A DNA stretch of 64,000 nt from a virus. Its lineage: Duplodnaviria > Caudoviricetes. Below, in pieces: positions 7,564-47,099 of the stretch. How positions within the stretch are numbered: the stretch's first letter is position 1; each line of letters begins with the position of its first letter. Below the pieces are notes generated by a model. It was not told the origin of the DNA. It saw only the letters and a list, made by a program, of their open reading frames with translations, and did not search any database. Where the stretch lies: the IMG/VR virus record IMGVR_UViG_3300021426_000005; one strand, given 5' to 3'. The position numbers and the translations under genes are program-made.

Positions 7564-9315
7564 ATGGATATTTATAATATCGCTAATGAACTGAAACTTT
7601 CTCATAAGACCATTCATGATATTCCGCTTAGAGTAACATTCTATGCTAGGGTTTCTACTACAAGAGAAGAACAAGAAGGCTCTATAGAGCATCAGATCAG
7701 CTTCTTTACTGAAATGATCCAGAATAATCATAATTGGACGTTTATTCCGGGTTATGTGGATAGGATCAGAGGGGAATCCGCATCTAACCGTGAAAACTTC
7801 ATGCGTATGATTGAAGATGGGAAGAATGATAAATTCGATTTAATCCTGACGAAAGAGGTTTCCAGATTTGCAAGAAACACAATTGACAGCTTAACTTATA
7901 CTAGAGAGCTATTACGCTGCGGTGTAGGTGTATTCTTCCAGAATGACGGAATTTGCACCATTGATACTGATAGTGAACTGAGACTAACTATCATGTCAAG
8001 TATAGCAGCTGATGAAGTCAGAAAGCTCTCAGAGCGTGTACATTGGGGACAGAAACGTTCAATTGAGAACGGTAGGGTCATGGGTAACAACCGTATGTAT
8101 GGCTATCACAAGTCCGACTGCAAATTAGTCATAGATGAAGCTGAAGCTGAAATGGTCAGACTGATATACCAACTATATGCTACCGGAGATTATAGCACCC
8201 GGAAAATAGAAAAAATCCTCTACGAAAGAGGATTTAGAAGCCGGAGCGGTACTAAAATTTTTCATGGGGTAATATCTGGAATAATTCAGAATCCTAAATA
8301 CAAAGGATATTACTGTGGAAATAAGGTCCGAATAGTAGACTACAGAACAAAACAGCAGAAGTTTCTTCCGGAAGAGGACTGGATCATATACAAAGACGAA
8401 ACCGGTGAAGTTGTTCCAGCTATAGTTTCAGAAGAACTCTGGGATAAGGCGAATGCAGTCTTCCAGGAAAGAAGTCAGGCTATTAAGGTAAGAGGGAGAT
8501 CTTTCAAAGATAAAAGTCCATTGACCGGAAAGATCTGGTGCGGAGCTGACGGAAGTGCCTATTGGAGAACGAGCTATTCCAACAGCATCAAGATGGGAAG
8601 CCCAATTTACCAATGGGTATGTAGTTCAAAGAAAAAGGACGGTGCAGCTTCTTGTAAATCATTTGCTTTAATGGAATGGGAAGTATACTACATCTTATCA
8701 AATACATTCAAATCACTAGTAGATGATATAGATACTTATGTATCAGAATTTCTTGAACTCCTAAAAGCTACAGATCCTACCAAAGATGTACAGAAAGATA
8801 TACTAGCACTAACAGCAAAAATTGATCAATGTAAAACAAAGAAAGATAAACTATTAGAAATATATATGGACGATGCTATATCTAAAGCTGAGTTCAAAGC
8901 TAAAAATGATGATTTCAATAGAAAGATTGAAGAATATGAAGGCGAAATCAATGACCTCAAGGAATTGAAATCCGACACAGCTATGACAAGCCGTAAGCTC
9001 CATGAGATTGAAAAGTCTATCAAGGGCATATATCAATCAGATGATGAAGTAATTCCGAAAGCTCAGTTGGACGACCTGATAAAGACTGTACTGGATAAAA
9101 TAGAAGTTTATCCTGATACTGAGGATTCAATGATTCTTAAAATCTTCCTAAAAACTGGGTCAGAAACATCAGTAACTCATTCAAAAGACTTGCGTTGTTC
9201 TGGACACATCAAACATATGATTAAGCCACAACAACAATACATATTCAAAAGAAATTCTATAAAAAGACAGCATCATGAATTCCAAATCAGATATGATGCT
9301 GAAATATACATATAA
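7564..9315 (+). CDS. large serine recombinase/integrase
   Basis: YARVST catalytic motif, KEVSRFARN, recombinase domain (NPKYKG, PAIVSEELW), zinc ribbon, coiled coil. Confidence 0.93.
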   Translation: MDIYNIANELKLSHKTIHDIPLRVTFYARVSTTREEQEGSIEHQISFFTEMIQNNHNWTFIPGYVDRIRGESASNRENFMRMIEDGKNDKFDLILTKEVSRFARNTIDSLTYTRELLRCGVGVFFQNDGICTIDTDSELRLTIMSSIAADEVRKLSERVHWGQKRSIENGRVMGNNRMYGYHKSDCKLVIDEAEAEMVRLIYQLYATGDYSTRKIEKILYERGFRSRSGTKIFHGVISGIIQNPKYKGYYCGNKVRIVDYRTKQQKFLPEEDWIIYKDETGEVVPAIVSEELWDKANAVFQERSQAIKVRGRSFKDKSPLTGKIWCGADGSAYWRTSYSNSIKMGSPIYQWVCSSKKKDGAASCKSFALMEWEVYYILSNTFKSLVDDIDTYVSEFLELLKATDPTKDVQKDILALTAKIDQCKTKKDKLLEIYMDDAISKAEFKAKNDDFNRKIEEYEGEINDLKELKSDTAMTSRKLHEIEKSIKGIYQSDDEVIPKAQLDDLIKTVLDKIEVYPDTEDSMILKIFLKTGSETSVTHSKDLRCSGHIKHMIKPQQQYIFKRNSIKRQHHEFQIRYDAEIYI

Positions 9316-9350: not shown

Positions 9351-11096
9351 TTATTCGATTGGATCAAGAGCATCAGCAATTCCACTCATGATATAAGCTA
9401 CACATGGTACCGCTACCGAATTTCCTAATGCTTTATATCTTGAAGCATCGGATTCAGGATAGGTCCAATTGTCAGGAAAACCCTGGAGCCTTTCGCATTC
9501 CACAGGCGTCAACCTCCGGACAATCGAATTTGATTTATATACTATCTTGGGGTCTTTATAATCCCTTGCAAGTAAGGTAGGTACAACTTCTTCATCACAA
9601 CCCATGAAATGCCCTGTAGTTGCGCAGAGTGCCGGCTGCTCCATTACCAACGGAACATTACCTCCACCAGTACCCATTCTCGCAGATAACGTCTGACATA
9701 TTCCGTCATCGGAAATCTTTACCCTACTGTCTGCTGGATGATTTTCAATTAATACACCCATTCTCTGATTAGCCACTAAAGTAGGTGATAATTCTTCATT
9801 GTATGGTAAACATGGCACTCCTGGACCGGCTTGATAAGCAAAAGCTGCTGAGGATTTTTCAGTTTGATCTTTTACGGAATAAGCAACCGCAGGTCTATCT
9901 ATAGTAGTCAATGTATAAGATACATCTTCTTTCCAACCTTTACCATTGCAACTAGCGGTATCAGCTCTGTCAACGCAATTTCCTTGTATACAGTACACCG
10001 GTTCCTGAACTACCACATTTCCGCCTTGATTGCAAGTAGGATCTGTTCCTGTGGTATCAAGGGTCTTAGCTACATCTGCTTTGTAGAAGCCACTATTAGG
10101 ATTACCGGACTTCATAGAGTTCGATCCCATAGAACATATACCATAGACTTCCGATGCTTCTGATTGACTATCTACCAGCACAGACATCTGATTATCGCCC
10201 ATCTGTGCTCTTAATGTACCGGAAAGCTCAGGCCATAGCCTTGAACCCTTTAGTCTTGAGGAAGCTCCTGGTTCAAATCCGTAGGTTGTTGTTTCTGCGA
10301 CATCAGATGTGCTTGCCTTTCCAATGCTACTTTCAGCCTTTCCGGAAGCTCTTTTCCACGGGATTTCGCCCTGCGGAGTATGCCTTCGCAGGCTTTCTGG
10401 CTTAAATAATACCTCTCTTGCACGTTGTCCTCCAAGATCTGTGACAAGGAAGATTCTACGTCTGCGCTGGGGGACTCCCCAATATTCAGCATCGAGAGTC
10501 CTCCAAGCAAGGGATCCGGACTTTCCCAACAACTCCCCCGCTTTTGTCCACTGCTTAGGTCTAAACGTAGGAAGTTCTTCTCCAAATAGTCCAGCGAATT
10601 CTCGCAGGACGCAGTAGAAGTCGTCTCCATTGTTTGAGCTAAGACTCCCGAATACATTTTCCCAGATAATAAATTTCGGATACTCGCCATTAGTTGCTTC
10701 CCTCATTTCTTTAATAATTCTGATCTGTTCTACAAATAGACCGCTTCGTGTTAGTTCCAATTCTGCTCCACACTCAGGGCAGGTAAAAACGTCAGAATTT
10801 GCAAGAATTGAAAATCCGCAGTCTTGGCAAATTCGTGAAATTCCGGCCTGCTTTCCGGCGATAGACAATGACTGACAGGGCGACCCTCCAGAAATTATAT
10901 CAACCGGATCAATTTTACCACCATCGATCTTCGTAATATCCCCAATATGCTTCATATTCGGGAAATGCCGTTTTGTGATGCGTATCGGAGCTTCTTCAAT
11001 CTCAGAAGCCCATACTGGTTCAATACCGTACATCTGAGCTGCAAGTTCAAATCCACCGATACCAGAAAACAAACTTCCTAATGTCAGCTTAGGCAT
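9351..11096 (-). CDS. DNA cytosine-C5 methyltransferase (alpha chain, long TRD region)
   Basis: LFSGIGG, GSPCQ, WENV, PQRRRR, RLTPVECERLQGFP, GNSVAVP. Confidence 0.95.
   Translation of the reverse strand: MPKLTLGSLFSGIGGFELAAQMYGIEPVWASEIEEAPIRITKRHFPNMKHIGDITKIDGGKIDPVDIISGGSPCQSLSIAGKQAGISRICQDCGFSILANSDVFTCPECGAELELTRSGLFVEQIRIIKEMREATNGEYPKFIIWENVFGSLSSNNGDDFYCVLREFAGLFGEELPTFRPKQWTKAGELLGKSGSLAWRTLDAEYWGVPQRRRRIFLVTDLGGQRAREVLFKPESLRRHTPQGEIPWKRASGKAESSIGKASTSDVAETTTYGFEPGASSRLKGSRLWPELSGTLRAQMGDNQMSVLVDSQSEASEVYGICSMGSNSMKSGNPNSGFYKADVAKTLDTTGTDPTCNQGGNVVVQEPVYCIQGNCVDRADTASCNGKGWKEDVSYTLTTIDRPAVAYSVKDQTEKSSAAFAYQAGPGVPCLPYNEELSPTLVANQRMGVLIENHPADSRVKISDDGICQTLSARMGTGGGNVPLVMEQPALCATTGHFMGCDEEVVPTLLARDYKDPKIVYKSNSIVRRLTPVECERLQGFPDNWTYPESDASRYKALGNSVAVPCVAYIMSGIADALDPIE
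10250..10690 (-). CDS. probable small (beta) subunit of the C5 methyltransferase, nested in an alternative frame
   Basis: SLSQILE...YYLSQKACEGILRRAKSRGKELPERLKVAL; GGAG upstream of the start. Confidence 0.7.
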   Translation of the reverse strand: MASIRNLLSGKMYSGVLAQTMETTSTASCENSLDYLEKNFLRLDLSSGQKRGSCWESPDPLLGGLSMLNIGESPSADVESSLSQILEDNVQERYYLSQKACEGILRRAKSRGKELPERLKVALERQAHLMSQKQQPTDLNQELPQD

Positions 11097-11220: not shown

Positions 11221-11601
11221 TCAGTCAGGTTTCCAGCCATCATCCAGATAGCATTTATAATGTTGGCTGTTATCATATCGAACGGTTGGGACTTCCCTAA
11301 GCCCAAATTCAACCTTTATATCCGAGATCAAGTCATCCGGAACATTGGGATTCATGTATACTATAGGTTTCCCTTTGTTTGAAAAGTCTACACGACCTCT
11401 GGGGTAGTAATTATACGGCTTATTGCACCCCTTTGGTTTTACGTCCTGCCAGAGCTTCTTGTGATTATAGGTATTGCCAGATTTTGCTACACCTTGAGTA
11501 TCATAATCAATAAACGGAAATGCTAATAATTCATCATCTATGACCCAGAACACACCCCTAGTTGGTTCTTTCGCCATTGATTTTATATATAGCTTCATCA
11601 T
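11221..11601 (-). CDS. conserved phage protein (YYPRGRV) with MKLYIKS tag
   Basis: ORF coupled to the upstream ATPase. Confidence 0.7.
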   Translation of the reverse strand: MMKLYIKSMAKEPTRGVFWVIDDELLAFPFIDYDTQGVAKSGNTYNHKKLWQDVKPKGCNKPYNYYPRGRVDFSNKGKPIVYMNPNVPDDLISDIKVEFGLREVPTVRYDNSQHYKCYLDDGWKPD

Positions 11602-12221
11602 TCATCAATCCTTTCCACATAGTCAAAGAATGCAGACAGCCATTCCGGTGGAGTTGATGTTGTCTGATCCATAGTATTAGAAATACGATTATACACAGCT
11701 ACAAGTTGATACCCGTTGCTGCTATCATAGAATTTTGCCGTATCACAGTAGTCTAAAATTTTACTTAATTGTTCAAATCTATGATTATATCTACGGATAA
11801 TCGTTTCACTTGGTATGTCGTGACCGCCATGCTTCACTCGGTTGGCTACCCTATCGATGCTATCCTGTGCGGAATTCAGACCGATATATATTAGGTTTAT
11901 CGTATACCCATGTTCCTTAGCTTTCTTAGCAGTAGCTATAATGTGCTTACCAGAAAGCGTAGTTTCTTCTGTAAATGCAAATCCATTTTCTATGCAATAT
12001 TCAATATCCTTTAATGCTTCTTTACCACCTTTGATATTGCCACCATACTTTATCGCATAGTCATCAGGATCTATAATTACACCGTATGATTCACTAGTTG
12101 TGCGCAAGATACCCATTGCTGAACTCTTTCCAACACCGTTTACGCCAGCAAGTATGGTGAATACCTTTTTCTTGACCTTAGTATCAACCACACTTATTAT
12201 TCTTCTGATATACCGCTTCAT
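11598..12221 (-). CDS. zeta-toxin-like P-loop ATPase/kinase with MKRYIR tag
   Basis: AGVNGVGKSS, DPDD, ETTLSG, RVANRVKHGGHDIP. Confidence 0.8.
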   Translation of the reverse strand: MKRYIRRIISVVDTKVKKKVFTILAGVNGVGKSSAMGILRTTSESYGVIIDPDDYAIKYGGNIKGGKEALKDIEYCIENGFAFTEETTLSGKHIIATAKKAKEHGYTINLIYIGLNSAQDSIDRVANRVKHGGHDIPSETIIRRYNHRFEQLSKILDYCDTAKFYDSSNGYQLVAVYNRISNTMDQTTSTPPEWLSAFFDYVERIDE

Positions 12222-14517: not shown

Positions 14518-14542
14518 AAGCTCCGGATATACTCCGGAGCTT
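14518..14542. terminator. hairpin terminator
   Basis: AAGCTCCGGA-TATAC-TCCGGAGCTT followed by T-rich tract. Confidence 0.75.
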
Positions 14543-14547
14543 TTATT

Positions 14548-15834
14548 TTAGAATAATTTTCTGCTTTGGGATCTGATATACTCAGCGACCCTACGCTTGC
14601 CTATATCTACATAAGGTTCTGATTCTGAATTCATCAGTTCCATGTCAATGTAGGAAAGCTGATAGTCTTCTTCCCTATTCAGCTTTTCGCAGGCTACTGC
14701 ATGGGTACATGATCCAGCGGTTATGTCGATAGTCATACCATGCTTCGGTGTAAGTAGCTTTATTAGCCACATTATCAGCTTTACTGGCTTTATGGTCACA
14801 TGGGGATTTGCAGTACCATCTTTCAATATCTTTTCATCATTAGCTGGCTTAGGGCAGTATTTGAACACCGGGAACATTCTGCTTCCACCACCAATATCCC
14901 CACAGCCACCGTGATTGCATATATCAACTTCAGAACTTGGATTATACTGGCTATAACACCGTTTACCCATATTACCAAGGCTGTTTAATCCTGATCCTCC
15001 GGTAGATCTAGTTACACCAGTTTCAGCATCAATAGCTTCGCACATATCATCGGAGATAAGTACATTAGGAGGAAATCTCCCGGCTTCATTAGCGGGCATA
15101 GCTTTATCTTCTGCAAAGCCACCATATATGTGACCTTCCTTTTGACTATAGTTGTTAGTAGGATTCTTAGATGCTTTAGCATTTATCATATCAATATCTT
15201 CCTTTGATATGGGAACTCTGCAAGCATCTATGTTCATAGCTCCGCAACCGTGCTGCCTTATGTTATCGGTATAGGTACCGTCTAAAGGCTTCTGGAATAC
15301 AGCTATCGGTTCATGAGCTGGTTTCAGGCCGGATGTTTTCCAACCATTCCAGATCTCAGCAAGTTCAGGGTCATCTTGTTTATCGAATAGCTTGCCTATA
15401 TCCTGGGACTTTGGCATTCCAGATAAGAAGATCCAGTCAATTTCCTCTACGACCTTAAACCCAGCATCTTCAAAAGCACACTTCATACGATGATTTGTCT
15501 TAGGATGTCCGAATATAGCAACATAGCCACCGGGCTTTATCTTTGATATAAGGATCTCAGCCCTATCATAGCACCAATTATAAAAGGACAATCCGTCCGA
15601 ATGGGTATTAGCATAGAATGCCGGTCTGCGCTTTCCAGAATATCCAGTACCAGGAAACTGACCATGTATACCTTCGCCAGTATTCCAGTGTTTAGAAGAA
15701 TCCCAGTTCTTACCCATGAATTCGATTGCATAAGGAAAATCAGATATGCAACTATCTACAGAGTTATCGGATAATGTTCGTAATAGTTCTATGTTGTCTC
15801 CGTGTAAGATCTTACCGGTCATGTCACACCTCAA
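14548..15834 (-). CDS. DNA N6A/N4C methyltransferase (beta class)
   Basis: SDFPY, LKPAHEPI, GRFPPN, HVTIKP, DITAGS. Confidence 0.85.
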   Translation of the reverse strand: MRCDMTGKILHGDNIELLRTLSDNSVDSCISDFPYAIEFMGKNWDSSKHWNTGEGIHGQFPGTGYSGKRRPAFYANTHSDGLSFYNWCYDRAEILISKIKPGGYVAIFGHPKTNHRMKCAFEDAGFKVVEEIDWIFLSGMPKSQDIGKLFDKQDDPELAEIWNGWKTSGLKPAHEPIAVFQKPLDGTYTDNIRQHGCGAMNIDACRVPISKEDIDMINAKASKNPTNNYSQKEGHIYGGFAEDKAMPANEAGRFPPNVLISDDMCEAIDAETGVTRSTGGSGLNSLGNMGKRCYSQYNPSSEVDICNHGGCGDIGGGSRMFPVFKYCPKPANDEKILKDGTANPHVTIKPVKLIMWLIKLLTPKHGMTIDITAGSCTHAVACEKLNREEDYQLSYIDMELMNSESEPYVDIGKRRVAEYIRSQSRKLF

Positions 15835-16616
15835 AATAATTTATTTGTTTTCATATCAACTACATCTGTAGTTGTTACTTCTGAAAGAACTTCATCGGAT
15901 TCGATTCTTTCTTTCGCTATATGGAAGTAGTTTTCGTCTAATTCAATTCCTACGAAATTTCTTCCAAGGGCTTTAGCTGCTACACCGGTGGATCCGCTTC
16001 CCATACAATTGTCAAGCACTGTATCCGCTTCATTGGTAAATGTACGAATAAGATTTTCTAGCAATGCGATAGGCTTTTGTGTAGGATGAAGGTTATTGTT
16101 CAAACAATCCCTTTGATACTTCCATACTTGTGTTGGGTATCGCCAACCGGTATCCTTATATTCTCGCACTTTCTTTGCTTGACTATCAGTAAGTCTACCT
16201 AGACGACCGTCCTTGACTTTATTTGTTACAGATTTACCTTCATGTTTCATCATCTGCGGGTTATATGTAGGTTGTTTATCATAGAATATGCTAATTGTTT
16301 CCACGGTTTTACCAACACGCTTTTTTACCTGATGAATATTTGTAAGGCGTTCTTTTTCCCAATAAATATCGTATTTATACCAATTGAGGTTGCTCAGTCG
16401 AAGATAGCTACTAAATGGCTCTTGTCCAAACAAAGCAATGGTGCCGTTGGGTTTTATAATACGCTTATATTGATCCCATAGCTTATCAAATGGAATCACA
16501 ATATCCCAAGCACAAGCTGTTGTGCCATAAGGCAGGTCACACAATATCATATCTATGCTCTTATCGGGTATCTGCTTCATTATTTCCAGACAATCTCCCT
16601 GATACAATTCAACCAC
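15831..16616 (-). CDS. DNA N6A/N4C methyltransferase (beta class)
   Basis: DLPYG, HPTQKP, VLDNCMGSGSTG. Confidence 0.92.
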   Translation of the reverse strand: MVELYQGDCLEIMKQIPDKSIDMILCDLPYGTTACAWDIVIPFDKLWDQYKRIIKPNGTIALFGQEPFSSYLRLSNLNWYKYDIYWEKERLTNIHQVKKRVGKTVETISIFYDKQPTYNPQMMKHEGKSVTNKVKDGRLGRLTDSQAKKVREYKDTGWRYPTQVWKYQRDCLNNNLHPTQKPIALLENLIRTFTNEADTVLDNCMGSGSTGVAAKALGRNFVGIELDENYFHIAKERIESDEVLSEVTTTDVVDMKTNKLF

Positions 16617-16630
16617 CGTAAATTCTCCTA

Positions 16631-17551
16631 CTAAAACAATGTATTAACCTTCTTAGGCTTGCTTAGAATATATTCTGGTGTATAATTAGCCACCAAAATC
16701 TCTTCGGCATGGCTATTTCCTTTACCACAGGCTGAATATGTGTGGTTGGTAAACCAGTTTACATGATATGAATTATTAGATATCCATTTAGCCAAAGTGT
16801 CATTGTACTTCCCCTTATTGTTTAATACAGAGGATAGTGCCCAACGGATACCCTTAGCAGACATAGCATCCAGCAAGTCGTACAAATCTAATTCATCTTC
16901 TATAGACCAGCCCTTACGACCGTCCCTATTTTCATTGTATGTCGCAGTAGTTCCAGCATATGGTGGGTCACAATAATAGAAGGCATCAGAATTAGCATCT
17001 GATAGTATATTTCTAAAATCCAGACAAGTGTACTCAACCGAATCTTGTTTGAAAAAGCTACAGCCATTTTCCACCCCAAGTATTCGATTAGAACTGAAGT
17101 AATCTGCCCCAAGTGGCATATTGAATTCACCATCAGAATTAAATCGTATCATTTGAGAGAAGGAAAATATTGACAATGTGAATAATTCAATAGGGAGTTT
17201 GGATTTGTTATATGAATTTCGCAGCTTTTCATATCCAGATTTATGTTGATCTCTAATATCTTTCATGACAGAATGTCTCTCTGTAAGTGGCAAATCATAC
17301 TTTTTGATTAAATCATTTACTTGGCAAATTATATCTTCGGAAGAATGATTTTTGAAAAGCGAGTATAAGGAAATGATGTGATCATCAATATCATTCAATT
17401 GATACGAATTCGCTTGAACATTCATAGCCACGCATCCGCTTCCACTAAAGACATCAACAAATCTGTTTATATCTTTTGGAAACATTCTAATCAACCCTGA
17501 CTTAACAAGTCTAGTCTTACCGCCCATATAAACTATAGGTGATGTAATCAT
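16631..17551 (-). CDS. Dam-like (D12 class) adenine methyltransferase
   Basis: YMGGK, DVFSGSG, RFN..G.FN.P.G, DPPY. Confidence 0.92.
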   Translation of the reverse strand: MITSPIVYMGGKTRLVKSGLIRMFPKDINRFVDVFSGSGCVAMNVQANSYQLNDIDDHIISLYSLFKNHSSEDIICQVNDLIKKYDLPLTERHSVMKDIRDQHKSGYEKLRNSYNKSKLPIELFTLSIFSFSQMIRFNSDGEFNMPLGADYFSSNRILGVENGCSFFKQDSVEYTCLDFRNILSDANSDAFYYCDPPYAGTTATYNENRDGRKGWSIEDELDLYDLLDAMSAKGIRWALSSVLNNKGKYNDTLAKWISNNSYHVNWFTNHTYSACGKGNSHAEEILVANYTPEYILSKPKKVNTLF

Positions 17552-17778
17552 TATTTCACCTCAAATACAAGTGGATCTGCAAAAAAATCTGATATAACTA
17601 TATCATCAATCGGATTAAGTGTGGTCTCCATAGCTTTCAGGATATTTTTCTTAGGAATATCCGGAGGTATAATTTTAGTACGAGCTTCAAGTCTCTCAGA
17701 TACTTGCTGGAGTTCTTCATGAATAGCCTGTTTTAGTTCGTCTAAAGACATATTATTGAGTTCTTCTTCGGTATACAT
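17551..17778 (-). CDS. hypothetical protein
   Basis: Coupled ORF. Confidence 0.55.
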   Translation of the reverse strand: MYTEEELNNMSLDELKQAIHEELQQVSERLEARTKIIPPDIPKKNILKAMETTLNPIDDIVISDFFADPLVFEVK

Positions 17779-17779
17779 A

Positions 17780-18103
17780 TTATCCTCCTTTACGATATTC
17801 CAGTAGTCTCATAGCTATATCCATAATATTAGGCTGCATATAAGCAGACCTAAGATTCTGTCCCGTACTGTGGTCGAAATTTTTGAATATATCTGCAAAT
17901 TCAACCTTTGAAGCAAGCTCAGGATGCTCTGCTTGCAGCTTTTCTAATTCCAAAGCCCATTTAGACCACTGGTCATCGGATATGATGTTCTGGTTCAGTT
18001 CATAGTAGATATAGCTGTGAACTAACAGCTGTCTTCTTCTGCGCTTTATCAAACCAGATATATCCGGCTTTGGCTTTAGTGAAAACAGAGCATTAGCTTT
18101 CAT
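17780..18103 (-). CDS. stand-alone protein resembling the N-terminal (Ia) subdomain of NAD-dependent DNA ligase
   Basis: HSYIYYELNQNIISDDQW...EL.KLQAEHPE. Confidence 0.65.
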   Translation of the reverse strand: MKANALFSLKPKPDISGLIKRRRRQLLVHSYIYYELNQNIISDDQWSKWALELEKLQAEHPELASKVEFADIFKNFDHSTGQNLRSAYMQPNIMDIAMRLLEYRKGG

Positions 18104-18290
18104 CAGAATATTCCTCCGGTAGTTCTACTAGTGGACAATAATCTGGCCTTTCGTATCTAAGATCCTTTTGAGTGATGTCTAAAGCATCATCTGTTCCAGC
18201 GCAGAAATATTCATGCTCACTATAGTCATAACACAGTGGACACCATGCACAAGACTTAGGCATATCAAGCCCTTTAATGATTACACTCAT
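18093..18290 (-). CDS. small Cys-rich phage protein
   Basis: MPKSCAWCPLC...RPDYCPL. Confidence 0.6.
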   Translation of the reverse strand: MSVIIKGLDMPKSCAWCPLCYDYSEHEYFCAGTDDALDITQKDLRYERPDYCPLVELPEEYSDES

Positions 18291-18291
18291 A

Positions 18292-18960
18292 TTATAACCA
18301 CCTAATTATAGTATCTCCAGTATATCCCTTTTCCCACACAAACCAGGCAAAGCACATTGTTGAAGACCAAGGCTTTCCGTTCGGGGCTACTGCTTCACCG
18401 TTAGGAAGTGGTGCAACACGTTTGCTGAACACATAAACAAAGTGTGGTGGATTATACTTAAACATTTCTTTACGTTCAGCGGTTTCAAGTAATTGTATTC
18501 TAGCAAATATTATAACGTAGTGATTCGCTATAGATAATGCCTTCTCAATAAATGCCTGAGCTAATGCGAATGGTGGGTTGGTGATTATGGAATCTATCGG
18601 CTCTTTTGACTCATATTCCAAAAAATCAACACCACCATTCACCTCGATACCCAGCCTGCTTTCTCTACAGATCAGATCATTTGCAATGATTTTGTTATTC
18701 GGGTAATACTTCCTAAGTACCTGAACTATATGCCCTTCCCCAGCAGCAGGCTCTAAAATGGTGTCAAATCCCAAAGATATTCGGCTTAAAATAGCTTCGG
18801 TTGCATTGAACGGTGTTGCATAATAGTCATGACTTACCCGACCCCTTGCTGGATCACTACCTACTAGTTTAGCACCAGACAGCACTTTACGATCTTCGCT
18901 TTTGACATCATCAGTTGAACTATATTCAGTATGAAATAGCTTATTTAACATCATAGTCAC
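18292..18960 (-). CDS. DNA adenine methyltransferase (NPPF type)
   Basis: DYYATP, LEPAAGEG, ITNPPF, FAWFVW. Confidence 0.88.
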   Translation of the reverse strand: MTMMLNKLFHTEYSSTDDVKSEDRKVLSGAKLVGSDPARGRVSHDYYATPFNATEAILSRISLGFDTILEPAAGEGHIVQVLRKYYPNNKIIANDLICRESRLGIEVNGGVDFLEYESKEPIDSIITNPPFALAQAFIEKALSIANHYVIIFARIQLLETAERKEMFKYNPPHFVYVFSKRVAPLPNGEAVAPNGKPWSSTMCFAWFVWEKGYTGDTIIRWL

Positions 18961-18963
18961 CTC

Positions 18964-19671
18964 TCAGAATAATTTATGAGTTTTTGATTTCTTCTTATAA
19001 TAACTTGGGGTATAGTAATCTGGTTGAGAATCAAATGCTTCTTCACAGATATCTACTATATGTTCGCATAAGAGCTTAGGGATCCTGCTACGTTCTACAT
19101 GGTCTTTTAGCCCCTGAGTTCCAGTTCTGCTCCCCCTCGGTGCAGCTATATGGCAGAGATCACCGTTCTTGCATGGTGGCTTAAATCTAGGATCAGGATG
19201 ATTAGTCCATATATCCGTAGGCTTCATTCTACTATCCCCGTAGCCACAGTAAGTGGTGGTATATCTAGGTAAAGACTGGATCCATGACATCTTCCGCATA
19301 CCGCCCCTAGGGTTTTCAATAAACCAGAACTTAGGCTTGAGTTCATCTACTAAATCCAAACAATGCTGGTCTATAATATCACACTGTCTGGCATACTCGC
19401 TGATAGGGTCTAATGAACCTGTTATTGGGTTTAGCGTTCTGTGGTGTGAGATCGCCGCTATGGAATAAGTCGTACAATCGAAGCTCATCCACACAACATC
19501 AGGTCTACCGAATTTAGACAGAACTTCATCTACACTAAGATTTCCAATGTCTGCATATAAATCTATATCAGGAAATGACCTTTCCCAATCAACACTGAAA
19601 ACTTCATGACCTTTAGCTTCAAATGCTTTTCCGATAGATCTAGTTCCAGCAAATAATTCTAACACTTTCAT
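18964..19671 (-). CDS. C5-methyltransferase-like protein (short)
   Basis: VLELFAG, SFDCTTYS, FIENP, KPTDIW. Confidence 0.8.
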   Translation of the reverse strand: MKVLELFAGTRSIGKAFEAKGHEVFSVDWERSFPDIDLYADIGNLSVDEVLSKFGRPDVVWMSFDCTTYSIAAISHHRTLNPITGSLDPISEYARQCDIIDQHCLDLVDELKPKFWFIENPRGGMRKMSWIQSLPRYTTTYCGYGDSRMKPTDIWTNHPDPRFKPPCKNGDLCHIAAPRGSRTGTQGLKDHVERSRIPKLLCEHIVDICEEAFDSQPDYYTPSYYKKKSKTHKLF

Positions 19672-19976
19672 TCAGTGTGCTCCCATTCATTGCATTTGCG
19701 ATTAAGGTATGCAGATATACACTTATCACAAGTAGATACGCTTGGATATTTGCTATAATTTTCGTAATCATCGGGTTTGGAATGACAATGCTTCACCCAC
19801 ATACCATGCTCTCCAAGTGCATCAAGAACACAGCATTGACCATGACTGCGGAGTATAATGGATGTGTTCATACTTCTAAGCAAATCCCCTATCCAAATAT
19901 TAGTCAATCTTTCGCTATTTATAGGAATTCGCTCGGGTTGGTCATTGTAATGATCTAGATTGCAGAGATCTAACAT
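19668..19976 (-). CDS. hypothetical Cys-rich protein
   Basis: AGGAG RBS; first gene after a TCGTTA motif. Confidence 0.6.
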   Translation of the reverse strand: MLDLCNLDHYNDQPERIPINSERLTNIWIGDLLRSMNTSIILRSHGQCCVLDALGEHGMWVKHCHSKPDDYENYSKYPSVSTCDKCISAYLNRKCNEWEHTE

Positions 19977-20092
19977 AATCGCTCACACTCCTATAATATC
20001 TATAACGACGGGCAAATGCCAAAAAGCAGACCCATTTCCTATTGAGTCTGCTTTGGCTTTGGAGGTCATAGCAATGGCGAACTATGACACGA

Positions 20093-20167
20093 TGGTGATC
20101 CGTAGGGGAGTTGAACCCCTGTTCCCAGAATGAAAATCTGATGTCTTGACCACTTGACCAACGGACC
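20093..20167 (-). tRNA. tRNA-Glu(TTC)
   Basis: Cloverleaf; TCAGA-TTTTCAT-TCTGG; CCA encoded. Confidence 0.9.
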
Positions 20168-20174
20168 ACAATAG

Positions 20175-20250
20175 TGGTGCGACCAGAGGGGTTTGAACCC
20201 TCGACCTACCGCTTAAAAGGCGGTTGCTCTGCCGACTGAGCTATAGTCAC
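20175..20250 (-). tRNA. tRNA-Lys(TTT)
   Basis: ACCGC-CTTTTAA-GCGGT; CCA encoded. Confidence 0.92.
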
Positions 20251-20255
20251 ATATG

Positions 20256-20366
20256 CACTGTAAGCTGGTATCCGGTGCTTCTAATACCGTAGTGTGTAGG
20301 TAGTTTACCATGGTACTATCCTACTTGCTTTGCACTGTCCTCCGAAATTGAACGATGCTTACAGTG
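20256..20366 (-). ncRNA. unknown structured RNA between tRNAs
   Basis: 10-bp closing stem CACTGTAAGC/GCTTACAGTG plus internal hairpins. Confidence 0.5.
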
Positions 20367-20368
20367 AT

Positions 20369-20446
20369 TGGTCCGGATGACAGGACTCGAACCTGCGACC
20401 TCTTGATCCCAAATCAAGAATTCTAACCAAACTGAAATACATCCGG
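20369..20446 (-). tRNA. tRNA-Pro(TGG)
   Basis: CTTGA-TTTGGGA-TCAAG; CCA encoded. Confidence 0.9.
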
Positions 20447-20450
20447 ATAT

Positions 20451-20538
20451 TGGTGCTACCAATCAGACTTGAACTGATAATGAATTTTACTTCGCTGGAT
20501 TTTAAGTCCAGTGTGTCTGCCTATTCCACCATGGTAGC
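20451..20538 (-). tRNA. tRNA-Leu(TAA)
   Basis: CTGGA-CTTAAAA-TCCAG; long variable arm; CCA encoded. Confidence 0.9.
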
Positions 20539-20543
20539 AAATG

Positions 20544-20581
20544 TGGTACTTGAAGTAAGATTTGAATTCACATCAAGTACC
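20544..20581 (-). pseudogene. tRNA-Leu-like minihelix remnant (acceptor plus T arm)
   Basis: GGTACTTGA-TGTGAA-TTCAAAT-CTTAC-TTCAAGT-ACCA; 3' end TCAAGTACCA identical to tRNA-Leu(CAA). Confidence 0.5.
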
Positions 20582-20853
20582 GTTTGGTCGGGTTTACAGG
20601 GAGCGACCCCATATTCCCAATGAGTTGCCTACACAAGAACGTGTAACTTATGTAGGACTTTTATCCCTTTTGCTAGTTTCCGTAGGTAGCTACTTCTACA
20701 GGTTTGCTCATAATCAGGGACGATTTGATGGCTGTTCCGTCTTCATCAATTCTACATCACAAAATTGTAATATCTAAGATACTAGTATTTTACAATGCTG
20801 CCACACCGTTTTTGGATAGTTGGTCCGGAGTTTCTTATCTGGGTCATTGCAAA

Positions 20854-20887
20854 ATTTCAATCCACGCTCCCCGTGAGAGGGGGCGAC
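20854..20887 (-). CRISPR. solitary type I-C-like CRISPR repeat (no array, no cas)
   Basis: GTCGCCCCCTCTCACGGGGAGCGTGGATTGAAAT. Confidence 0.8.
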
Positions 20888-20901
20888 ACCATAATCTCCG
20901 G

Positions 20902-20987
20902 TGGTACTTGAGGTGGGAATTGAACCCACAATGTCTTTCGACACTTGTTTTTGAGACAAGCTCCTATGCCTATTCGGATACTCAAGC
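20902..20987 (-). tRNA. tRNA-Leu(CAA)
   Basis: CTTGT-CTCAAAA-ACAAG; variable arm TGTCGAAAGACA; CCA encoded. Confidence 0.9.
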
Positions 20988-21083
20988 ATATGCCCGGTTT
21001 CAGACCGCAGCTATTGCCACGGTCCGTAACCGGAATCTGAAAAGGTGGTGTATTACCGCCGTACAAAAGGAGAAAACGGCGAT

Positions 21084-21168
21084 TGGTGGGGATAACAGGG
21101 ATCGAACCTGCATGAATTTCTTCACCAGAACCTAAATCTGGCGCGTGTGCCAATTTCGCCATATCCCC
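21084..21168 (-). tRNA. tRNA-Leu(TAG)
   Basis: CCAGA-TTTAGGT-TCTGG; CCA encoded. Confidence 0.9.
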
Positions 21169-21169
21169 A

Positions 21170-21994
21170 CTAGAATAATCGGTTTGTTGCTCTGGCTGGC
21201 TTAATGCTATCTAAACGGCTTTTTGCAATCTCACAATACTCCGGAACTGCTTCAATCAACACCCAGTCCCTTCCTAAACTCTGTGCTACTTTTGCAGTAG
21301 TACCGCTACCACCAAAGGGATCTAGAATTAAGTCACCTGGATTACTCCATGAAATGATGTGATCTTCAACTAGTTTCTCCGGAAAGATTGCAGGATGCTT
21401 GTATGCGATTTCATCAGAAGTAGCAAAGCCTTTGCCGTTAGCATAGCGCCATATGTTCGTTCTGATACCGAATTCACTGATAACCTTTCTACCTTTATTT
21501 GTAAGACTACCGTCCTTTTCACGCCGGGTAACTTCACCATAAGTAGATGTTCCAGCCCATTTGTTAGGCTTATCTTTTATAAGGTTTATGGTTTTAGGTC
21601 TCCCTTTGCTTAGAACGAACATATACTCAAAGGCGTTGAAATACCTGTTGGGGTGGGGCGGTCCGGAGCCGGCCTTCTCATAGATGATCACATCGTACAT
21701 ATCGAAGCCGATCTCCTGGAAGAACAGCGCCTGCTTGAAGCTGGTCAGGGTCTTGCTGCCCTTCAGGGTCTTATCCCCTACCACCCAGACCACGACTCCG
21801 CCGGGCTTCATCACACGGTAAAGCTCCCTGGCGATGGTCTGGAAGACCTCCATATCCCACGAAGCCACGCCCTCGTAGTCTCTTAGGTCGTCGTAGGGCG
21901 GACTAGTCACCACCAGGTCGATGCACTCCGCCGGGAATTCCTTCAGCAGCCGGTCGGATCTGTCGTTGAAGATTTTATTTACAAAATCAAACAT
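21170..21994 (-). CDS. DNA N4C/N6A methyltransferase (beta class)
   Basis: VTSPPY, HPAIFPE, LDPFGGSGTT. Confidence 0.93.
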   Translation of the reverse strand: MFDFVNKIFNDRSDRLLKEFPAECIDLVVTSPPYDDLRDYEGVASWDMEVFQTIARELYRVMKPGGVVVWVVGDKTLKGSKTLTSFKQALFFQEIGFDMYDVIIYEKAGSGPPHPNRYFNAFEYMFVLSKGRPKTINLIKDKPNKWAGTSTYGEVTRREKDGSLTNKGRKVISEFGIRTNIWRYANGKGFATSDEIAYKHPAIFPEKLVEDHIISWSNPGDLILDPFGGSGTTAKVAQSLGRDWVLIEAVPEYCEIAKSRLDSIKPARATNRLF

Positions 21995-22011
21995 TTCACA
22001 CCTCTAACACT

Positions 22012-22046
22012 GTGTGAGATGTGACATCGAAATCACATCTCACATA
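22012..22046. terminator. strong hairpin
   Basis: TGTGAGATGTGA...TCACATCTCACA. Confidence 0.5.
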
Positions 22047-22101
22047 ATGTAATTCAGACCCTTCGCTATAGGTCATGAAGTGAAGCCAAAGGCATCACCG
22101 T

Positions 22102-22210
22102 TGGAGCGGTGTGTAGGTCCTACCCCTACTGGTGGTTACAACCACCTAACAGCATAAACCACCTATATGATGTATGTTGAATGTACGTCATATCGCCGCA
22201 CTGACACCGC
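22102..22210 (-). ncRNA. tRNA-like RNA with CCA end and non-canonical arms
   Basis: Acceptor GCGGTGT/ACACCGC-T-CCA; T-like arm GTAGG-GGTAGGA-CCTAC. Confidence 0.55.
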
Positions 22211-22478
22211 ATATGTATGCCAGTCTTTCCTGGCCGTCAACTTGTCTTTCCAAGTGGTCATCTATCTAGGTCAAAGAAAATATTTACTGAGCGGTTTGAC
22301 CTATAAACCACTTCTTTTCGTCTTTCCGAACCGTCATACGATTTTACAACAGATTTAATTCGTAGTCTATTAACGTATCTGTCAACTCTTTTCATCACAC
22401 TGATACAAGAGATTCAAGCTGCGTCGTCGTTCTTCCTTTTATTTATTGACCCAGTAAACACGATAAAAGTTAGGTCTA

Positions 22479-22554
22479 TGGTTGGTGTAGAGGGATTTGA
22501 ACCCCCGAATAACGGAATCAAAATCCGTGGTCTTAACCGCTTGACGATACACCA
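22479..22554 (-). tRNA. tRNA-Gln(TTG)
   Basis: ACGGA-TTTTGAT-TCCGT; CCA encoded. Confidence 0.9.
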
Positions 22555-22604
22555 ATAAATTTTATACTTGATTTTGGCAGTATACCTATCTTATACCAAA
22601 TCCG

Positions 22605-22698
22605 TGGGGGCGGTGGGATTTGAACCCACAATCTTCTTTGCTTTCCAGAGAAGTAATAACTTCTAAGGCAAGTGACTTAGCTTTTAGTCGACGCCTCC
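22605..22698 (-). ncRNA. tRNA-like gene with a 26-nt expanded anticodon loop
   Basis: Normal acceptor, D and T arms; anticodon stem encloses CTTAGAAGTTATTACTTCTCTGGAAA. Confidence 0.6.
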
Positions 22699-22870
22699 TA
22701 CATGAAGAGCTTCCGCCACTTCATGATTAGATCAGTTATAAGACAGGTTTACACTACCATTACGTTCATTTTGTTCTGTCCAGATCAAGCTGGATCTCAT
22801 TTGTGGCTGATGAACGAACGTCCCACCAGAAATTTGCATTCACAATGTGGGAGAAAGAAACAGCCCTGGA

Positions 22871-22976
22871 TGGCAGCAGTGAGAATCGAACTCACCAGCG
22901 AATGAATATGGTCTGTACTTCTACAGTCCTGAGATTCAAGTTAAATCTCTACATTCCCACTTCAGTGGTCGCCGCC
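22871..22976 (-). ncRNA. tRNA-like RNA with a two-hairpin insert in place of the anticodon loop
   Basis: GGCGGCG/TGCTGCC acceptor; GTGAG-TTCGATT-CTCAC T arm. Confidence 0.55.
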
Positions 22977-23198
22977 AAAAATGTCCCCAGAAGTTCTATA
23001 TACCTCTGGGAAATAAAAGAAGAGGTATTTATTTGGATGTCAGTTTCTGCTTTGTTTTGCTTGTGTGTAAGCAGGATCACACATTGGACAAGAAACCAAG
23101 TCATCACCTCAGTTTCCTGATACACCCCATGAAGGGGATTCACATGGGGTGTTATTTGGGGAAGATGTCCGCAGCTACTGACGCAGATTGCTGTGGAC

Positions 23199-23275
23199 TG
23201 GTGGAACATGAAGGACTTGAACCTTCGATCGTCCGGTTATGAGCCGGAAGCCTTAACCAGCTTGGCCAATGTTCC
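23199..23275 (-). tRNA. tRNA-Met or Ile2 (CAT)
   Basis: TCCGG-CTCATAA-CCGGA; CCA encoded. Confidence 0.9.
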
Positions 23276-30856: not shown

Positions 30857-31414
30857 TTAGCGGTCTAATGGTAATCCATAGCGTTGTAACTGTACATTCC
30901 ACCGACCTATTCCATTACCATCTGAGGTTTCCTGCAAGGTATTAAGCCACTGCCTGCTCCAATTCCAGCTATCAGCTACATCAAAACCAGGATAATTGTT
31001 TAAGACCCACAGCCACTTATGATGGAATATATACTCTGAATGTCCGGTCTTGATTGTTCCGTCAGGTTTCACTGTAATATAGTCTCCGACCTTGGGCTCT
31101 CTTGCAGTATCAAAATCAGGCGATTCCTGAAATGATACATCACCGGTTTTAGGGGAATACCGTATGCAGTTATATTCATAGTCTGGATATTCTTCTGATA
31201 GCACTTGTTCTGCATATTCTAAAATATCAAGAGGAATTACATCTTCGGCATAATCCCTATGGAAATATATATCTCCGCCGATTTCTTTACCCACACCGTA
31301 TTTTGAACTTCGTTTTATAGGTGAGCCTTTATATGTTTTAAGGGTAGATCCTACTTCAGTCTGCTTATCATTATACTCCTGCGGAGTAAGTGCAGCTCTT
31401 ATATAACGTTTCAT
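30857..31414 (-). CDS. MKRYIR-tagged protein resembling the accessory domain of the phosphorothioation-associated methyltransferase
   Basis: GKEIGGDIYFH...SFQESPDFD...IFHHKWLWV..YPGF. Confidence 0.55.
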   Translation of the reverse strand: MKRYIRAALTPQEYNDKQTEVGSTLKTYKGSPIKRSSKYGVGKEIGGDIYFHRDYAEDVIPLDILEYAEQVLSEEYPDYEYNCIRYSPKTGDVSFQESPDFDTAREPKVGDYITVKPDGTIKTGHSEYIFHHKWLWVLNNYPGFDVADSWNWSRQWLNTLQETSDGNGIGRWNVQLQRYGLPLDR

Positions 31415-33383: not shown

Positions 33384-33674
33384 TCAATAACGTGTAAGGA
33401 AGTAATTCAGGCAACCTGTAACGATTTCATCATAAGTATGGGTGAAATCAAAGTCGTCCTGAATGTACTCCCCACCATCTTTCACAAGCCATATGTCATA
33501 CCTATCATCAGGATCTGGTGGGATAAGTTTGAATCTTGCATAGACATCACCATCATCAAATCTGATGATGACCTCTCTATCTGAAACCTCAACACCGTAG
33601 CCGAGGTCCTTAATTTTTTGGTACTGCCAAGAATCTTCCCAATTCTCACGGGAAGATTTGATGTATCTTTTCAT
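33384..33674 (-). CDS. MKRYIKS-tagged acidic protein
   Basis: ORF with tag. Confidence 0.75.
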   Translation of the reverse strand: MKRYIKSSRENWEDSWQYQKIKDLGYGVEVSDREVIIRFDDGDVYARFKLIPPDPDDRYDIWLVKDGGEYIQDDFDFTHTYDEIVTGCLNYFLTRY

Positions 33675-33693: not shown

Positions 33694-34008
33694 TCAAAGT
33701 TTTGCTACCGTAGCATCAGCAGAATTGCCGACATAGAGTTCGCCAGTATCTTTGTCTTCGATAAGGATACCAGAACGATAACCATTGGTATCATTCCAGG
33801 CAATGCCTATGATCTCATAGTTCATTTCCATAGGATCAAATGTACCAGCCATATCTTCTGCAATACCGGAAGCTACCATATCCCTGAGTTCTTTTCTGGT
33901 GAATAGGTACTTACCGGGGAATCTGCTTGTCTGCTTGCCGTATTTCTTTCCGTTAGGTGCTTTCCATGCGGAAGCCATTACGGAAGTGGATTTGATATAT
34001 CGTTTCAT
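33694..34008 (-). CDS. MKRYIKS-tagged protein
   Basis: ORF with tag. Confidence 0.75.
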   Translation of the reverse strand: MKRYIKSTSVMASAWKAPNGKKYGKQTSRFPGKYLFTRKELRDMVASGIAEDMAGTFDPMEMNYEIIGIAWNDTNGYRSGILIEDKDTGELYVGNSADATVAKL

Positions 34009-36644: not shown

Positions 36645-36974
36645 TCAATCAATTATAATCGGAATTCTGTTTACTACTGTGATATAGTTATCACTATATC
36701 CAGAAGCGTGTGTATAATATCTGTTATCGATCCAGTTGTTGCCGATAGCGTCATCCCAGCCATACTTTGCATATCTCAAAGCCCGCTGGAACATCTTATA
36801 AGACGGATCGTTTATCAGCTTATCTCTCCAACGCTCTGCGGTTTTTCTGTCCTTATATACGATCAGATTATATCGTGCAGAGTAATTGTCCTGGGTCATT
36901 ACACCGAACTCAGGCTGATCTTCTTCGTAAGCAAAAGCTACATCATAGTCATTTGCTTTTATGTATCTTTTCAT
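36645..36974 (-). CDS. MKRYIKA-tagged protein
   Basis: ORF with tag, GAGG RBS. Confidence 0.75.
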   Translation of the reverse strand: MKRYIKANDYDVAFAYEEDQPEFGVMTQDNYSARYNLIVYKDRKTAERWRDKLINDPSYKMFQRALRYAKYGWDDAIGNNWIDNRYYTHASGYSDNYITVVNRIPIIID

Positions 36975-37414
36975 AATAGCACCTCACTTAAACTTAGTGT
37001 CTGTCCCAGAAATTCCAGCCAGATCCATCCGATCCAGAATTTCTTCCTCTGTTAGCTTTAGCTTCAAAAGTGGATTGTGTATCTAACCACAATGGTTCAT
37101 CACAATATACACCCCTTGATGCTAGTTTCGTAGCAACATCATATGTACTGCCAGTTTTCAATTTATACCAAGGTGAATCTAACATAGCCCAATCAGTATC
37201 TGTTATTTTGCTAAAATAACAATTTCCGGCATCCCAATCCATACCTATGACTGCACCTATCGGAAACCTATTCAAAACAGCTTCGTATTCCTGGATGTCA
37301 GCATAAGTAGTCTTTGAATATCCAGGAAATACAGGTAAATTGTTTAATTCCGTCAGTATACTTTCTTCTTTAGAACACCGAATATATCTTTTCATAACAG
37401 CACCTCACTTAAAC
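36961..37414. repeat. 33-bp direct repeat (36961-36993 and 37382-37414) bracketing one gene
   Basis: atRtatcttttcataaYagcacctcacttaaac, 2 mismatches. Confidence 0.85.
36994..37395 (-). CDS. MKRYIRC-tagged protein
   Basis: ORF with tag. Confidence 0.75.
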   Translation of the reverse strand: MKRYIRCSKEESILTELNNLPVFPGYSKTTYADIQEYEAVLNRFPIGAVIGMDWDAGNCYFSKITDTDWAMLDSPWYKLKTGSTYDVATKLASRGVYCDEPLWLDTQSTFEAKANRGRNSGSDGSGWNFWDRH

Positions 37415-46874: not shown

Positions 46875-47099
46875 CTAGAATAGCTTATTTGTTTTAGCCT
46901 TAGCAGTGGCGGATTTGGTATCAGCCAGCTCCGCCACTTTAGTTACTGATGCAGATTTCCCATCGACCTTAAACTTATACCCCGCAGACACCATATCTTT
47001 TAGGATTGTGGTATCTGGAATACAGCTAGTATGCGTGGTTGTCATGACTATAGCACCAGCAGAATTGAGTACCTGAAATAGCAAGTTATCACCCCTCAC
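46875..47099 (-). CDS. small protein with NKLF tail
   Basis: Ends AKTNKLF. Confidence 0.6.
   Translation of the reverse strand: MRGDNLLFQVLNSAGAIVMTTTHTSCIPDTTILKDMVSAGYKFKVDGKSASVTKVAELADTKSATAKAKTNKLF

Follow-up and report, generated by a model that had tools for sequence, protein, structure and literature searches.

A common C-terminal peptide is carried by six proteins encoded in a 64,000-nucleotide stretch of Caudoviricetes DNA (IMG/VR record IMGVR_UViG_3300021426_000005; the whole stretch is referred to as the window), five of them being DNA methyltransferases (MTases) of different classes. The tail is real, non-random and selected as a peptide, and from comparison of sequences it is somewhat likely to be a peptide by which these enzymes dock on a sliding clamp, tentatively the clamp of the phage itself. 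An earlier note on this DNA had listed the six ends, SQSRKLF, MKTNKLF, KKVNTLF, SKTHKLF, RATNRLF and AKTNKLF, as those of unrelated DNA MTases. All six are present as read, all on the minus strand, and the enzymatic assignment holds for five of the bearers but not for the protein ending at 46875, which belongs to no recognised family.

A shared C-terminal tail on unrelated methyltransferases

Within the window, the C-terminal LF tail is borne by 5 of the 7 MTases and by 1 of 96 other open reading frames (ORFs) (Fisher p=1.4e-6). No further credible gene among approximately 90 non-overlapping window ORFs ends in [KRT]LF, and the background of [LM]F ends in related loci amounts to 10 out of 1117 non-MTase ORFs. 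The MTase domains of the phage comprise PF01555 (three copies), PF02086 and PHROG 757, 799 and 116, while in the operon spanning 14548-21994 the MTases are accompanied by nothing but small ORFs, a ligase Ia domain and tRNAs. Phage-encoded, equipped with an S-adenosylmethionine-dependent domain and located away from any cognate restriction endonuclease, the enzymes are orphan phage MTases.

The codons that specify the tails vary synonymously (AAA/AAG, TTA/CTA/TTG, TTC/TTT, AAT/AAC) and the six tails are followed by different elements, namely the ribosome-binding site (RBS) of the next gene in four cases, an overlap with the next ORF in one and a terminator in one. As both codons and contexts differ among the tails, their conservation points to selection at the level of the peptide.

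The earlier note had further proposed that enzymes of different classes acquired the tail secondarily, and comparison with relatives bears this out. The Pfam domains end 16-47 residues ahead of the C-termini. The best 120 orthologues of the 261-amino acid (aa) MTase are 72-98% identical to it (72-84% save for one near-identical copy) and share a core that ends in an ..AKERIE helix, beyond which most of them stop within a few residues; some end in QPKRLF, KKRKLF, QSKLF or KVNLF, and others in NQLW or KTNI, and the tail has been gained and lost among orthologues of 73-84% identity. The AlphaFold2 model of this enzyme has a confident C-terminal lobe, followed by residues 244-261 with a predicted local distance difference test score (pLDDT) below 50 and no secondary structure, which places the tail outside the catalytic core and predicts it to be disordered. 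The ends NQLW and KTNI were considered as tags in their own right and rejected, since neighbouring visible MTases do not share them; a 377-aa protein near a KKRKLF-tailed orthologue, considered as a clamp, is not recognisably one. For the D12-class MTase, the IMG/VR search with the method used gave no relatives.

The sole non-MTase bearer of the C-terminal tail in the window is a 69-aa protein with MLF at its N-terminus and KLF at its C-terminus. It had been delimited as a 74-aa ORF (46875-47099), of which the AKTNKLF end stands and the start does not, the true start being the TTG at 47084, in line with a 90%-identical homologue that begins MLFQV. The protein has neither a Pfam or PHROG family nor an Atlas match, and one near-identical homologue was found.

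N-terminal counterparts of the tail had also been pointed out, MLNKLF at 18960 and MKANALF at 18103. Both are present, although they carry no significance on their own: 7 of 90 window ORFs have LF within their first nine residues, including conserved motifs of YopX and of the C5 MTase, and N-terminal LF was for this reason rejected as an enriched motif of the window. In the 222-aa adenine MTase the C-terminus belongs to the conserved fold, is conserved to its last residues and bears no tail; its N-terminus has an extension of about 30 aa, missing in relatives, which begins M(M)LNKLF. This sequence would fit a motif that is independent of position, but it is a single case. MKANALF, with which a stand-alone NAD-ligase Ia domain begins, may be an N-terminal form of the motif. 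The ligase of the phage may be split.

Coordinates and terminal sequences of the features discussed (positions are those of the window unless preceded by a locus identifier; L006 is the upstream locus of the same phage)
Feature	Coordinates	Strand	Characteristics
428-aa N6/N4 DNA MTase	14548..15834	-	PF01555, large insertion; final gene of the MTase operon; C-terminus ..IRSQSRKLF, tail codons 14551-14565
Intrinsic-terminator-like hairpin	14518..14542	-	Immediately 3' of the SRKLF stop codon; no next-gene RBS there, unlike the other tails
261-aa N6/N4 DNA MTase	15831..16616	-	PF01555, E=1.6e-34; C-terminus ..DMKTNKLF
306-aa D12-class N6-adenine MTase	16631..17551	-	PF02086, E=2.3e-30; C-terminus ..KPKKVNTLF
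107-aa stand-alone NAD-ligase Ia domain	17780..18103	-	PF22745, E=3.6e-28; begins MKANALF; inside the MTase operon
222-aa adenine MTase	18292..18960	-	NPPF motif, PHROG 799; likely start ATG 18954 or 18951
235-aa DNA MTase	18964..19671	-	PHROG 757, E=1.4e-38; ELFAG motif I; C-terminus ..KKKSKTHKLF
274-aa N6/N4 DNA MTase	21170..21994	-	PF01555, E=5.4e-43; C-terminus ..ARATNRLF
69-aa protein, family-less	46875..47084	-	Starts MLFQ (TTG behind a GAGGGG RBS); C-terminus ..AKTNKLF
C5 MTase	9351-11096	-	Large; without C-terminal tail; adjoins serine recombinase
Serine recombinase	7564-9315	+	Resolvase/Recombinase/Zn-ribbon
Nine tRNA genes	20093-23275	-	Glu, Lys, Pro, Leu-TAA, Leu-CAA, Leu-TAG (two), Gln, Met
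Small proteins with MKRYI[KR] leader	11598-12221, 30857-31414, 33384-33674, 33694-34008, 36645-36974, 36994-37395	-	Otherwise dissimilar
DnaB	L006:11732-13081		C-terminus ..DLNADDDIEF
SSB-like protein	L006:14189-14890		C-terminus ..EEIEEAPDFD
PolA, 858 aa	L006:14960-17536		Begins MGLFSKVQ
374-aa beta-clamp homologue	L006:17548-18672		Next to PolA, ~17 kb upstream of the window
DpdA-like proteins, ~320 aa	L094:17427-18380, L108:17683-18675		31 others in further contigs
NUMOD4/HNH homing endonuclease	L126:18964-19812		C-terminus ..RRSRRLF
NUMOD4/HNH homing endonuclease	L007:12330-12902		C-terminus ..RKHKSLFK
ParB-like (DpdB-like) protein, Cellulophaga phage phiSM	L203:3208-3672		C-terminus ..ETSVNLF
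DpdA, Streptococcus virus MS1			C-terminus KQNRLF
DpdA, Bacillus phage Flasso			C-terminus SQGKLF
DpdA, Pseudomonas phages Iggy and NP1			C-terminus IQELF
DpdA, Acinetobacter phage HD01			C-terminus AQELF
DpdA, Hafnia phage yong3 and E. coli phage CAjan			C-terminus VMELF
DpdA, E. coli phage JenK1 (9g-like)			C-terminus LQDLFDE (LF plus two residues)
DpdA, Rhizobium phage RHEph04			C-terminus EQRLF
DpdA, Vibrio phage BA3			C-terminus IQGLF

The C5 MTase is transcribed convergently with the neighbouring serine recombinase and is the only large MTase without a tail; an MTase expressed from the prophage would need no tether to the replisome. Four of the nine tRNA genes situated among the MTase genes are tRNA-Leu genes.

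Clamp motifs, the phage clamp and its relatives

The bacterial clamp-binding motif, QL(S/D)LF, sits C-terminally and tolerates variation (PMC9690074). Across 80 IMG/VR loci that encode relatives of the 261-aa MTase, Qxx[LM]F occurs within the last 12 residues of 10 out of 120 distinct MTase ORFs, against 1 out of 1117 others (p=5e-10). Examples of such ends are ..AEQAQLKLF, ..VTQLDLFEVVG, ..KKQVSLF and ..PKQMTLFEEEDE, together with QMTLF and with two MTases of one locus that both have QTKLF; relatives of the 274-aa MTase add ..SQLSLFSEVKEI, a further locus with QLSLF. In the window tails the terminal L-F is invariant and position -5 is occupied by T, S or V rather than by Q. Ends at the same position elsewhere include QSKLF, QTKLF and QLKLF in orthologues, and QNRLF and QGKLF in DpdA, an enzyme annotated in phages as inserting 7-deazaguanines into DNA; TNRLF of the window agrees with QNRLF of Streptococcus virus MS1 at 4 of 5 positions.

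A 147-kb contig from a human-gut metagenome (ENA ERZ28612969 scaffold_102) matches the window and was read to ~38 kb upstream of it, the scan for tails covering all but ~45 kb of mostly structural genes. The contig ends within the gene of the 274-aa MTase (window ~21665), where the window runs on, and this mutual permutation of the assemblies fits a circular or terminally redundant genome. The phage is temperate-looking, with a serine recombinase, YopX and Thy1, and upstream of the window it possesses a replisome block that encodes DnaB, primase, a single-stranded DNA-binding protein (SSB)-like protein with an acidic tail, PolA, a 374-aa protein and PD-(D/E)XK-like, DnaX-like, RecA-like and delta'-like proteins. 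DnaB and the SSB-like protein have acidic-aromatic ends of the SSB C-terminal type that are kept in relatives, and these ends, judged by their sequences, represent another terminal-peptide code in the same replisome.

The 374-aa protein is weakly DnaN-like in Pfam. The profile built for its protein family (~95 representative clusters at E<=1e-30) matches beta clamps of the PDB over the full length (E=2e-17), its AlphaFold2 model has a pLDDT of 95.8, and the top Foldseek matches are all bacterial beta clamps, with a template modelling score of ~0.7 and 11-16% identity. A tblastn search with this clamp against cultured phages gave no match. The sliding clamp and loader presupposed in the earlier note are thereby supported by profile, model and the DnaX- and delta'-like loader genes near the clamp gene, and the phage encodes a divergent beta-clamp homologue of its own together with a loader. 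When two clamp copies were modelled together with residues 226-261 of the 261-aa MTase, the complex received scores of 0.19 and 0.11, the mark being 0.32; controls were not run, and the result counts neither way.

Relatives of the clamp are encoded by 41 IMG/VR contigs, and conservation of the tail extends to phages with a clamp of this family. In the closest relative, whose clamp is 42% identical, three enzymes of an MTase cluster end in SKKLF, SRRLF and SKRLF, and another relative has ..TKNKLF followed by 12 residues; the MTases of a 253-kb relative end in NYNLFE, TYNLFGE, TFNLFGEQ and PMALF. In the complete 35-50-kb phages with canonical tails, a clamp of this family is lacking, in keeping with reliance on the host DnaN.

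A DpdA-like protein of ~320 aa is encoded ~7 kb downstream of the clamp in 33 of the 41 contigs. It corresponds to PHROG 887, "queuine tRNA-ribosyltransferase" (E down to 1e-43), and is homologous to annotated phage DpdA. All 33 proteins, with 21 distinct C-termini, end in [KR][KRS][KR]LF plus 0-4 residues, preceded by a variable linker, and the presence of the tail on both MTases and DpdA-like proteins indicates that it marks DNA-modifying enzymes of unrelated folds. NUMOD4/HNH homing endonucleases located right after dpdA in two of the loci bear LF ends as well, which were either taken over at insertion or reflect use of the same partner.

Furthermore, PolA begins M-x-L-F-[STN] (M-x-L-F-[STN]xxQ) in ~37 phages of the clamp family (L092-L131), this phage being no different; the only exception, MGFW, is found in the 253-kb phage, whose MTase tails differ too. 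The N-terminal LF is a candidate clamp-binding peptide of this family A polymerase.

The cultured phages (L198-L203, L208-L212) add DpdA proteins whose ends are given in the table. In 9 out of 10 (CAjan, JenK1, NP1, Iggy, MS1, HD01, yong3, RHEph04 and BA3), dpdA lies 0-2 small genes upstream of the phage clamp gene, the corresponding 330-aa gene of JenK1 being annotated as hypothetical only. A DNA polymerase gene follows the clamp in 8 out of 10, with ..G[LF]FW.. at the N-terminus in all seven that were read; polymerases of the cultured Queuovirinae type begin M..DA[LI]G[LF]FW[EQD]D. In Cellulophaga phage phiSM DpdA itself is untailed, and the overlapping downstream ParB-like (DpdB-like) gene encodes a protein with an LF end.

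Proposed clamp docking and its alternatives

The tail, [ST/V]-[N/H/R]-[K/R/T]-L-F-COOH, would be a short linear docking motif on a flexible linker that DNA-modifying enzymes of different folds gained independently of one another, and a form of the bacterial beta-clamp-binding motif (QL[SD]LF or QxxLF) peculiar to this lineage. Its terminal Leu-Phe would enter the hydrophobic cleft of a sliding clamp, between clamp domains II and III. Clamps remaining on newly replicated DNA would recruit the MTases, and the phage DNA would be methylated directly behind the fork and hence be protected from restriction. We infer the binding of tail to clamp, the identity of the clamp bound and the kinetic benefit for methylation. 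The clamp in question is perhaps the phage's own, a view that we hold with less than even confidence, while docking on the host DnaN appears unlikely. Loss of the glutamine and the basic [KR][KR] preceding the motif coincide with a highly divergent clamp, as co-evolution of motif and cleft would produce.

The comparative support for clamp docking is strong, consisting of the QL[SD]LF-type ends of orthologues, DpdA encoded beside clamps and the terminal LF of PolA, and it has to be set against several observations. No [KR]LF C-terminal end is found among the replisome proteins of this phage; the earlier note had expected [NH][KR]LF ends on replication proteins, and polymerase, clamp loader, helicase and primase have none, the polymerase having LF at its N-terminus instead, where it may serve another role. 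Two of the seven phage MTases (the C5 and 222-aa enzymes) are untailed at the C-terminus, as are the MTases of two phages with matches to the clamp profile (E 1e-20 and 8e-12) and several large PF01555-containing proteins of clamp-family phages. The canonical glutamine is absent from the window tails, and the argument from co-variation is built on metagenomic fragments and on ORF calls made here. All of these weigh against clamp docking.

A shared partner other than the clamp, be it another replisome or recombination protein, a hub of SSB type or a phage scaffold gathering the modification enzymes, is not very likely, although a tail that is common, terminal, flexible and lineage-specific shows a common partner without naming one. 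The lack of the canonical glutamine in the window would agree with such a partner, and so would the different tail, [LVI]K.W..F, on three adjacent MTases of another phage group; what it leaves aside is that orthologues have, in the position of the tail, pentapeptides identical to the canonical clamp-binding ones and that a tailed dpdA lies just upstream of the clamp gene in nine cultured phages, while the loci examined show no other hub protein that varies together with the tail. The other phage group consists of very large IMG/VR phages (L155-L159), in which the three MTases, of different subfamilies, share [LVI]K[VLSA]W[EDK][KN]F[SGIM], for example PLKVWENFS and VKSWEKFI. The shared sequence could be another docking peptide, specific to that lineage; the loci are 5-13% fragments only, no clamp is visible on them, and they are uninformative in this respect.

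The remaining explanations account poorly for the canonical motifs and for the linkage of dpdA to the clamp. Some degrons, a rival also raised in the earlier note, typically have a hydrophobic end preceded by basic residues, and the tail is exposed and disordered in the model, as would suit a C-terminal signal for ClpXP, Lon or a tail-specific-type protease, of host or phage, that clears the enzymes at a defined stage of infection or in lysogens. A degron would nevertheless leave unexplained the exact clamp-binding consensus on orthologues, the conserved LF at the polymerase N-terminus, the adjacency of dpdA and clamp and the way the tail tracks the phage clamp family, and we regard it as quite improbable. 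Marginally less probable still is a non-specific basic extension that raises DNA affinity and one-dimensional sliding with no protein partner: many tails are indeed rich in Lys and Arg (KKKSKTHKLF, KPKKVNTLF, and VKKAKKLF of DpdA-like proteins), but it is the Leu-Phe that is invariant and not the charge, which is net zero in DVVDMKTNKLF of the 261-aa MTase, and the canonical versions QLDLFEVVG and QMTLFEEEDE are acidic. Loading of the MTases into capsids for injection with the DNA is very improbable, since the bearers are MTases, DpdA-like proteins, two HNH homing endonucleases, one ParB-like protein and the 69-aa protein, with no structural or known ejection protein tailed in either the window or 40 related loci, and since a packaging signal does not explain the canonical clamp motif in orthologues. 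In its favour, the phage does use terminal peptide tags, as a separate protein family has the common N-terminal leader MKRYIK.. (the leader, MKRYI[KR], opens otherwise dissimilar small proteins). A signal in the nucleic acid, such as translational coupling, an RBS enhancer or a recombination junction of cassettes with the peptide as by-product, has next to no probability and is largely refuted by the codon comparison. In four of the six genes a purine-rich, Shine-Dalgarno-like GAGG or GGAG for the next gene lies no more than a few bases beyond the stop codon, and one tail overlaps the next ORF, as would suit such a signal; however, synonymous codons differ at nearly all tail positions, one tail precedes a terminator, and unrelated phages have the same peptide encoded by other nucleotide sequences in other contexts.

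Beyond this phage, and more tentatively than for its own clamp, clamp docking can be extended to the possibility that many unrelated phage lineages run clamp-coupled DNA modification, in which every DNA-marking enzyme would be a clamp client by means of a terminal peptide, including several MTase classes, DpdA 7-deazaguanine transglycosylases and ParB-like DpdB partners. Peptide and clamp in use would co-evolve, giving QxxLF for host-type clamps, [KR][KR]LF in this family and xNLFGE and LK.W..F in other giant phages. The N-terminal M-x-L-F of PolA would bind the same cleft, and the 69-aa MLF...KLF protein would act as a bivalent regulator of the clamp.

Relation to known clamp clients

Terminal-peptide clients of clamps are already known, while MTase and DpdA-like clients were not found described. 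The clients of the bacterial beta clamp (QL[SD]LF or QLxLxL; Pol II, Pol IV, Pol V, delta, Hda, MutS, MutL and ligase) likewise have a short terminal Leu-Phe peptide on a flexible linker. Both cases involve unrelated DNA-acting proteins and a system with a beta-type clamp, and the exact consensus (QLSLF, QLDLF, QLKLF) is present on orthologues of the enzymes considered here. The differences are that these are DNA-modifying enzymes, that their tail, [ST][NHR][KR]LF, is without glutamine and that the putative clamp is only 11-16% identical to cellular ones. In phages T4 and RB69, gp43, gp33 and gp55 have a common C-terminal hydrophobic peptide that docks on the phage's gp45 clamp. There too, phage proteins of differing function share a terminal hydrophobic peptide for their own clamp; this clamp, however, is a PCNA-like trimer and the clients are polymerase and transcription factors, with no MTase client of the T4 clamp described in the literature searched.

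In eukaryotes, the PIP-box of DNMT1 recruits this maintenance methyltransferase to PCNA on replicated DNA (PMC9690074). The likeness to the arrangement proposed here lies in a DNA methyltransferase tethered to a sliding clamp by a short motif, with methylation following replication. PCNA is nevertheless a trimer and not a beta-type dimer, the motif is Qxx[IL]xxFF, the origins are independent, and DNMT1 maintains epigenetic marks whereas the window MTases presumably protect phage DNA from restriction. Among proteins of mobile elements, MuC of phage Mu (PMC12867686), Gp168 of phage Twort (PDB 7evp) and the SocB toxin (PMC9690074) bind the clamp cleft by motif-like peptides; these regulate transcription or inhibit the clamp, whereas here catalytic enzymes would use it as a platform. 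The plasmid MTases M.EcoGIX and M.BceJIII are associated with replication, and a link to Pol I mediated by a clamp was speculated upon by the authors (PMC7736820). They resemble the present enzymes as MTases of mobile elements functionally coupled to replication, but their substrate is single-stranded DNA and they co-purify with Pol I, with no terminal clamp motif reported. This speculation was the nearest that a full-text literature search came to a report of bacterial or phage MTases or DpdA binding a clamp.

A phage must modify its own DNA faster than host restriction enzymes cut it. If true, a tether to the clamp would be a simple physical answer to how orphan methyltransferases and DpdA match rapid replication, would provide the bacterial world with a counterpart of DNMT1-PCNA and the clamp "tool-belt" with a new class of clients, and could help to predict which phage enzymes act on DNA.

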